From the IMG/VR virus record IMGVR_UViG_3300032327_000792: a DNA stretch of 64,000 nt; one strand, given 5' to 3'. Within the stretch, counting starts at the first letter, position 1. The number at the start of each line of letters is the position of its first letter. The position numbers and the translations under genes were made by a program. This document shows positions 41,517 to 42,574 of this stretch, piece by piece. The DNA comes from a virus (taxonomy: Duplodnaviria; Caudoviricetes). A model generated the notes under the pieces. It was not told the origin of the DNA and searched no databases. It saw only the letters and a program-made list of their open reading frames with translations.

Positions 41517-42359
41517 ATGAGCCAAACAACCAACCCTTTGCGCAAGCATTTTCGTCAACCGGCGATACATTTAAAATTACCCAGTGGTGGTAGATTTTAC
41601 CCGCAGGGTGCCATAGTATTGCCGCCCACTGGCGAAATCCCAATTTTGCCTATGACTGCTGTGGACGAAATCACAACCAGAACTCCTGATGCCTTGTTCA
41701 ACGGATCTGCTGTGATGGAAATCATTGGCAGTTGTGCGCCAAACATTAGAGATCCGTGGTCAGTTACTGCCGTGGATTTGAATGCATTGTTGGTAGCGGT
41801 GCGATTGGCCAGCTACGGGCATGCCATGGAAATTGGATCAAAATGTCCTGGTTGCGGAAACGATCATTCATTTGAAATAGATTTGCGTGTGGTGTTGGAC
41901 GGGTTGCAGTGTCCTGACTATGATGCCACTGTGACTGCTGGGGATTTGACTTTTTACTTTGCTCCAATGACTTATCGTCAACTCAACGAAAACAGCAAAA
42001 TACAGTTTGAAGATCAAAAAATTATTCAGATGTTGAGCAACGCAGAAATATCCGAGGAAGAAAAGATGACTCAATTGGGCAATGCGTTTAGACGTATTAC
42101 TCGTTTGACTATCAAGAGTATTGCTGATTCTATTACCACTATCAAAACTGCAGATGCCATGGTCACTGAAAGAGATCACATTGAAGAGTTTTTGAATAAC
42201 TGTCCCAAGCATGTATTTGACAGCATTAGAGATCATGTGATCAAACTCCGAGAAGCTACAGATTTAAAACCCATTGATCTCACTTGTGCGGATTGCCGCA
42301 ATCAATACAAACAAGAATTTAGTTTGGACATCTCAAATTTTTTCGTAACCGCCTCCTAG
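41517..42359 (+). CDS. gp26: Baseplate hub / tail assembly chaperone (T4 gp26-like)
   Basis: LPSGG.FY, PMTA.DE, D...LLVAVRLASYG, CPGC and CADC motifs; start reassigned to ATG 41517. Confidence 0.7.
   Translation: MSQTTNPLRKHFRQPAIHLKLPSGGRFYPQGAIVLPPTGEIPILPMTAVDEITTRTPDALFNGSAVMEIIGSCAPNIRDPWSVTAVDLNALLVAVRLASYGHAMEIGSKCPGCGNDHSFEIDLRVVLDGLQCPDYDATVTAGDLTFYFAPMTYRQLNENSKIQFEDQKIIQMLSNAEISEEEKMTQLGNAFRRITRLTIKSIADSITTIKTADAMVTERDHIEEFLNNCPKHVFDSIRDHVIKLREATDLKPIDLTCADCRNQYKQEFSLDISNFFVTAS
42335..42344 (+). other. Candidate -1 ribosomal frameshift site (A AAT TTT / T TTT TTC)
   Basis: Two overlapping X XXY YYZ heptamers in phase with the gp26-like frame; the -1 frame is open into 42362..42574. 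Confidence 0.6.
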
Positions 42360-42361
42360 TC

Positions 42362-42574
42362 TTGGACTCTGACGGCATCTCCAAGATGGTCGATCAGATG
42401 GAAAAAGAAACCCGTACAATAAGGCAGGAGGTTCTCAAACTATGTTGGTACATGCGTGGAGGGTTAACCTACGACGAAGCTGTGCAACTCAGTCAAGTTG
42501 AACGCGACATTATCAATGAGTTAGTCAAAGACAATTTAGAAACAACCAAAAAAAGCGGCCTGCCTTTTTTCTAG
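42362..42574 (+). CDS. gp51: gp51-like baseplate assembly protein (possibly expressed by -1 frameshift)
   Basis: LCWYMRGGLTYDEA..L...ER.II..LV..NLE motif; in the -1 frame relative to the gp26-like gene; no SD. Confidence 0.6.
   Translation: MDSDGISKMVDQMEKETRTIRQEVLKLCWYMRGGLTYDEAVQLSQVERDIINELVKDNLETTKKSGLPFF

Follow-up and report, generated by a model that had tools for sequence, protein, structure and literature searches.

A probable programmed -1 frameshift joining gp26-like and gp51-like reading frames in a giant T4-related phage and its relatives

A baseplate hub gene resembling gene 26 of phage T4 occupies positions 41517..42359 of the plus strand in a stretch of 64,000 nt (hereafter the window) from IMG/VR record IMGVR_UViG_3300032327_000792, which belongs to an uncultured giant T4-related phage (Caudoviricetes). 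Comparison with related loci indicates, with a probability that we place at roughly 0.87, that a programmed -1 ribosomal frameshift at the heptamer T_TTT_TTC (42338..42344), close to the 3' end of this gene, fuses its open reading frame (ORF) to an extension encoded in the -1 frame. A -1 frameshift fusing gp26-like and gp51-like ORFs was the core claim of the first-pass annotation of this DNA, and the claim gains support here from the conserved heptamer, from coding in the -1 frame and from natural fusions of the two parts. Judging from the patterns of substitution, both reading frames and the signal are under selection across a very wide group of phages.

Reading frames and slip site of the hub gene

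The product of the gp26-like gene matches the Pfam family PF12322 (T4_baseplate) with an E-value of 5.6e-14 over profile positions 15-218 of 219, and the PHROGs family phrog_150 ('baseplate hub'), which upholds the label it had been given from sequence alone; no other PF12322-like gene occurs within the window. Its frame encodes a short form of 280 aa and ends TCA AAT TTT TTC GTA ACC GCC TCC TAG, where two overlapping heptamers, A_AAT_TTT (42335-41) and T_TTT_TTC, both lie in X_XXY_YYZ phase and the stop TAG (42357..42359, plus strand, as are all features of this gene end) stands four codons past the second of them. The -1 frame is shut upstream of the slip site by a TAG at 42320..42322. After the slip site it reads F F R N R L L V L D S D G and onwards, remains open through TTG 42362 and, counted from CGT 42344, continues for 76 codons to a stop at 42572-74, so that the extension spans 42344..42574. 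The predicted long form, 41517..42344 joined to this extension, comprises 276 + 76 residues (352 aa). The only candidate start for a separate small ORF is the TTG at 42362..42364, 2 nt past the 0-frame stop, with no Shine-Dalgarno sequence upstream; the 70-aa ORF called from it has no match in Pfam or PHROGs, and a DNA-level search of the phage collection gave no match. Direct reading of the sequence agrees with the first-pass annotation on the end of the gene, both heptamers, the TAG at 42320-22, the openness of the -1 frame as far as 42574 and the lone TTG start.

In the mechanism that we propose, most ribosomes would read 41517..42359 and release the 280-aa short form, equivalent to gp26. 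A minority, on reaching U_UUU_UUC (42338-44) with the P site and the A site both occupied by tRNA-Phe, would shift by one base in the 5' direction and continue from CGU 42344 in the -1 frame, adding 76 residues as a helical extension and yielding the 352-aa long form, equivalent to gp51. An RNA stem 6 nt past the heptamer (42351-64 pairing with 42420-32 in the window) probably pauses the ribosome. Both forms would act together in the assembly of the baseplate hub and tape-measure complex, in a ratio set by the frequency of slippage, and would not be part of the virion. We infer ribosome slippage and its frequency from the sequence comparisons, and the function of the two forms in hub assembly by analogy with the hub chaperones gp26 and gp51 of T4. 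In Escherichia coli, all-pyrimidine motifs of the X_XXZ_ZZN type with UUY belong to the class that is prone to shifting (PMC4066793), and U_UUU_UUC fits X_XXZ_ZZN.

Conservation of the slip site was assessed over 86 related loci with 29-92% protein identity, including those of Atu_ph07, Phosso, 121Q, CBB and XbC2; a scan of IMG/VR supplied 80 of them (39-92% protein identity). The nearest isolates are Sinorhizobium phage Phosso, Agrobacterium phage Atu_ph07 and the Rak2-like giant phages 121Q, CBB, GAP32 and XbC2. At all 86 loci xxT TTT TTC G is found in phase, and the frame offset between the two ORFs is always -1. In a codon alignment of 64 unique genes, TTTTTTCG is the sole invariant run of at least 3 nt in the gene, and all three of the invariant third-codon positions (3 of 275) fall inside the heptamer. 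Outside the heptamer the same genes use TTT and TTC in a ratio of 450:190, and AAT and AAC in a ratio of 618:505. Homologues thus keep the slippery codons at synonymous sites, and the comparison of sequences argues that the slip site is kept beyond the needs of the protein. Of the two overlapping heptamers only T_TTT_TTC is conserved above chance. The other, A_AAT_TTT, which the first-pass annotation had also offered as a working heptamer, was rejected because the base preceding AAT may be A, T, C or G among relatives.

One IMG/VR contig shows a rearrangement at this gene end. In L081 (780-1000) the 3' end of the gp26-like gene carries a local duplication of about 60 nt, with ...GTAGAGTTAACCTGCGAAAATCCTGAATGTAATCAAGACTTCA... 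present twice and an inverted piece between the duplicate copies; the gene is interrupted just before the slip site, which stays intact. The duplication may stem from an artefact of assembly or from a small insertion.

Coding in the -1 frame begins at the slip site itself. Every related locus encodes F-F-R-x-R-L-L in this frame, which runs 72-79 codons to a stop and on the upstream side is closed within 0-36 codons of the slip site; the 0-frame tail has 1, 4 or 6 codons and an unconserved sequence. The slip site is followed by a CGN codon, in which N takes any of the four bases, so that it always specifies Arg in the -1 frame and V, A, E, G or D in the 0 frame. Over the first five -1 codons, pairwise differences number 1242, 560 and 3379 at codon positions 1, 2 and 3, respectively. 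Across relatives the first ATG, GTG or TTG of the -1 frame comes 1, 2, 4, 5, 6, 12, 14, 15 or 18 codons past FF, and 11 unique loci have no start codon for 12-18 codons past FF, yet the preceding peptide is conserved. Even the TTG at 42362, which had been named as a start that might explain the product by independent initiation, is CTG in L009, the closest non-trivial relative (66% identical). Since the peptide upstream of these varying start codons is conserved, separate initiation cannot explain the conserved coding.

Natural fusions, the downstream stem and alternative explanations

A profile of the extension detected 477 proteins among 1.84 billion. Among the best 150 of these 477, most are small ORF calls, and some are proteins of 319-351 aa in which the extension forms the C-terminal 77 residues in frame. 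Twenty of these longer proteins, each a natural single ORF, align with the conceptual 352-aa fusion from end to end at E-values of 1e-71 to 1e-27; the three alignments that were printed have no gap where the two parts meet, as in ...SLDISNFFRNRLLVLDSD... against ...VLDHSELFRNKILTMNEE....

In two contexts from other uncultured giant phages, L096 (287 aa then 331 aa) and L093 (297 aa then 342 aa), a short PF12322 paralogue is encoded just upstream of a long one. These loci resemble the window in their synteny (portal, large structural protein, divergent PF12322 genes), and from end to end the long paralogue corresponds to the window fusion (E 5e-65 and 1e-62). Unlike the window, they have two genes, and the heptamer is absent from both genes in each context. 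The short paralogues (L096:3588-4451 and L093:196-1089) have lost both Cys-x-x-Cys motifs, whereas the long paralogues and the window gene keep them, which suggests a division of labour after duplication.

Folds of single sequences predict a stem downstream of the heptamer. Its 5' arm begins at a distance of 5-6 nt, and typically GGCUUUUGAC pairs with GUCAAAAGCC across a loop of about 47 nt. The arm sequences are clade-specific but complementary, as in GGCUCUUAAC with GUUAAGRGCC and GGCUUUUGUC with GACAAAAGCC. For the 70 nt starting 3 nt past the heptamer, 47 of 64 loci give z < -2 and the mean z is -3.1, values that are rough, coming from 30 mononucleotide shuffles per locus. Covariation in the stem was tested on an ungapped alignment of 56 sequences with 500 shuffles. 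Pairing cells amount to 80.6%, as against 75.9 +/- 0.6% in shuffles and 25-64% in slid controls, and cells changed on both sides number 24, where 7.6 +/- 2.4 are expected; none of the 500 shuffles reaches either value. RNAalifold gave no consensus structure on an in-register alignment, because the arm sequences differ from clade to clade.

In the window itself the predicted stem, obtained from a 100-nt fold, has the 5' arm GCCUCCU-A-GUCUUG (42351..42364), starting 6 nt past the heptamer at the position also seen in relatives, and the 3' arm UAAGGC-AGGAGGU (42420..42432). L008 retains this pairing, with U.G replaced by U-A, and in L009 the AGGAGG arm lies nearer to the slip site. The first-pass annotation had drawn attention to two small inverted repeats instead, AGTC-TTG-GACT (42358-68) and CATCT-CCA-AGATG (42376-88). 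Both are present, but they are weak (z -0.17 for the 60-nt fold) and unconserved, and as stimulators they were set aside in favour of the larger stem.

Several observations weigh against a programmed frameshift or soften the evidence for it, beginning with the fact that all of the support is comparative. The fold in the window is modest, with z -2.08 over 100 nt (6 of 200 shuffles as good) and -0.17 over 60 nt, and the window stem differs from the consensus stem of the family. As both arms of the stem also encode conserved residues, covariation is partly confounded with coding and counts as support, not as proof. The gp26 of T4 also ends in EFFELL, so that FF is in part a constraint on the protein; the codons in T4 are TTC TTT, a non-slippery sequence. 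The Arg two codons past the slip site is AGG in 91% of loci, a possible Shine-Dalgarno sequence. Stop-start overlaps of the ATGA or TAATG type occur in Atu_ph07, Phosso, 121Q and XbC2, and the TTG of the window lies 2 nt past TAG; by either arrangement, termination and reinitiation could also yield a free small protein. Finally, RNA polymerase might conceivably slip on the run of six T, with an identical product.

The conserved AGG lies 7-9 nt past the heptamer, its equivalent in the window being 42350-42352, and at this Arg AGA would fit both frames. AAGG might serve in addition as the Shine-Dalgarno sequence of a free small protein.

Those start signals are the strength of the best-placed alternative, that of two ordinary genes, in which translation of the small ORF alone, starting at TTG 42362 or at an ATG overlapping the stop, would be coupled to termination on the gp26-like gene and the T-run would just encode Phe-Phe. 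It draws further on an ATG 9 nt downstream of the conserved AGG in about 40% of related loci and on GenBank, where two coding sequences are annotated. We consider it improbable. The positions of the starts are unconserved and L009 has CTG at the window TTG, whereas the peptide that precedes the starts is conserved even in the 11 unique loci that lack one for 12-18 codons. In the Arg codon right after FF, which lies upstream of every start, the first two positions never vary and the third is free. TTC and the xxT before it are invariant at synonymous sites, and natural single-ORF proteins read through the same junction. Separate translation may occur besides frameshifting; alone it cannot explain the data.

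Slippage of the RNA polymerase, adding one U on the T6 run so that a fraction of the mRNAs carry the in-frame fusion, appears slightly less probable still. It would give the same product from an invariant run, and the related gene of Methylophilales phage Melnitz has seven T. In bacteria, a run must usually have about 8-9 or more bases for transcriptional slippage to be productive, which counts against it, and with the exception of Melnitz the run is exactly six T in heptamer phase and never lengthened. The stem conserved 6 nt downstream is moreover the geometry of a ribosomal -1 frameshift. That the arrangement reflects an artefact of assembly or sequencing, or decay of the gene, the real gene being a single in-frame long ORF, is scarcely credible: homopolymer runs are error-prone and in-frame long forms exist in other phages, but the identical arrangement recurs in 86 independent contigs and finished isolate genomes obtained by different sequencing methods, the 0-frame stop falls within 1-6 codons everywhere, and in-frame long forms are found only alongside a separate short paralogue (two contexts).

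A survey of the literature on frameshifting in gp26-type genes and of the GenBank records of carriers found none reported, subscription journals being thinly covered, so that absence of an earlier report is unproven. The paper describing PRFect makes no mention of baseplate or hub.

Relation to T4 gp26 and gp51 and to the tail assembly chaperones

T4 has two PF12322 genes (26 and 51), whereas Atu_ph07, Phosso, 121Q, CBB, KVP40, Syn9, P-SSM2 and Melnitz have one each. In KVP40, Syn9 and P-SSM2 the gene ends xxT TTT TTC GNN-stop and is followed by a -1 ORF of 59-67 codons starting FFR. Melnitz shows a natural variant of the heptamer (L101:2160-2200), T_TTT_TTT followed directly by TAA TAG, with a -1 peptide that starts FFL.

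The gp51 of T4 consists of the PF12322 domain and a 48-aa tail. Residues 2-49 of the P-SSM2 -1 peptide match residues 200-246 of T4 gp51 (E 7e-7), and the GenBank record of KVP40 states similarity to '40 amino acids at the C-terminus' of T4 gp51, so that the label 'gp51-like' for the small ORF of the window was well chosen. Using hhalign, residues 40-76 of the extension align with the C-terminus of T4-type gp51 at E 2-4.5e-5 and a probability of 69-76%. For this a family alignment of gp51 was needed; hhalign of the extension against the single T4 gp51 gave nothing significant, and a direct hidden Markov model search of T4 with the extension profile found nothing. The GenBank records of carriers give two coding sequences, with the stubs as separate 'gp51' and without a slippage join.

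The short form of the window resembles T4 gp26 (208 aa) in having the PF12322 domain ending at FF, and the long form resembles T4 gp51 (249 aa) in adding a helical C-terminal tail to the domain. In T4, however, the two proteins come from diverged, divergently transcribed genes without a heptamer (TTC TTT), whereas the short and long forms of the window would share an identical N-terminal part of 276 residues, because one gene gives both. The extension also exceeds the tail of T4 gp51 by about 28 residues. Gene 26 of T4 has an internal in-frame product, 26', which corresponds to the C-terminal 95 residues of gp26 (L006:3803-4090, the T4 record); T4 gene 26 therefore also yields two products, by a different route.

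Both T4 proteins are listed as hub assembly chaperones, gp51 being essential and absent from particles (Leiman et al. 2010, PMC3004832). In the portion covered of the table of CBB virion proteins identified by mass spectrometry, CBB_247 and CBB_251 are listed and CBB_249 and CBB_250 are not, a weak hint that the two forms may be absent from the virion.

A natural long form (P0020) was modelled by AlphaFold2 with a predicted local distance difference test score (pLDDT) of 93.6 and a predicted template modelling score (pTM) of 0.89, the extension forming helices at residues 254-329. The short form of the window gave pLDDT 87.6, with the last 5 residues, the 0-frame tail, disordered. Fold matches in BFVD are baseplate hub (assembly) proteins, the best at an E-value of about 1e-15. 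A sequence search of the Protein Data Bank (PDB) with both family profiles gave nothing relevant, and Foldseek against the PDB gave nothing below E 0.1. By exhaustive structural comparison, the N-terminal ~100 residues match YqbN (3klu_A), which we take to be a tail assembly chaperone of the XkdN type, with Z 6.1-6.4, and the HK97 tail assembly chaperone (2ob9_B) with Z 6.0 and a root-mean-square deviation of 6.0 over 87 aligned residues. These Z values are too low for us to claim a shared fold. Nothing was found by hhalign between the gp26 N-terminus and the HK97 gp13 chaperone family, and Pfam searches of the N-terminal domains at E-values up to 10 showed no chaperone family.

Among long-tailed phages a close parallel is offered by gpG and gpGT of lambda. 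Xu, Hendrix and Duda reportedly described in 2004 a conserved -1 frameshift of such tail assembly chaperone genes. The lambda pair (also E and E+E' of P2) would resemble the products of the window gene in that ribosomes slipping by -1 towards the end of a chaperone gene give a short and a C-terminally extended form in a fixed ratio, and it does so in that the gene adjoins a tape-measure or tape-measure-like gene. P2 uses a similar all-T heptamer, TTTTTTG. Unlike the lambda system, the window gene belongs to the PF12322 family and has no sequence similarity to HK97 gp13 (PF06222). It is also divergent from the tape-measure-like gene and does not lie between tube and tape-measure genes on the same strand, a point on which the likeness to lambda G/GT drawn in the first-pass annotation does not extend to gene placement. 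By analogy, T4 genetics and the weak fold match would be consistent with a G/GT-type chaperone function of the two forms.

Frameshifting of tail chaperones (G-T frameshifting) is regarded as conserved and nearly universal in long-tailed phages, 'except T4', which is the stated exception (review PMC5009743). The two separate genes of T4, 26 and 51, may explain why it looks like an exception to this rule. A broader proposal, to which we give somewhat less than even odds, is that the gp26/gp51 family is the counterpart of gpG/gpGT in the T4 superfamily: a tape-measure and hub chaperone pair whose ratio would be set by frameshifting, with an N-terminal domain of the tail assembly chaperone (TAC) fold. 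The one-gene state would then be ancestral, duplicated into a short and a long gene in T4 and in some giant phages. If this were true, the textbook 'T4 exception' would be removed.

On the sequence comparisons, gp26-like and gp51-like proteins would be made from one gene in Rak2-like and Atu_ph07-like giant phages, KVP40, cyanophages and hundreds of uncultured phages. A frameshift would explain the puzzling 'gp51' stubs of 55-70 aa in annotations, and would correct those annotations. Cultured carriers (121Q, CBB, KVP40 and cyanophages) allow direct tests of the roles of the hub chaperones and of their ratio.

Neighbouring genes

The gp26-like gene is preceded, on the minus strand, by a gene for a protein of 692 aa (39393..41471) that is tape-measure-like by position. 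It matches phrog_14121, a virion structural protein family (E 4.9e-6), has no match in Pfam, and is syntenic with CBB_251, a virion protein represented by 29 peptides in the portion covered of the CBB mass spectrometry table. The head-to-head arrangement of the gene pair with this neighbour, remarked on in the first-pass annotation, is correct and is found also in 121Q, CBB, XbC2 and Phosso. In Phosso, Atu_ph07 and the Rak2-like phages the gene order is portal, large structural protein, and then the divergent gp26-like gene with the small ORF. The C-terminal part of the 692-aa protein contains H-x-x-G-x-A-x-D and H-V-H motifs, on which it appears to resemble a peptidase of the VanY/M15 type.

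Directly 3' of the small ORF lies an ORF of 211 aa (42594-43229, plus strand). It has no match in Pfam; in PHROGs it matches phrog_15526 (E 1e-21) and phrog_314, 'homing endonuclease' (E 3.7e-11), and it is probably a mobile nuclease gene inserted past the hub genes.

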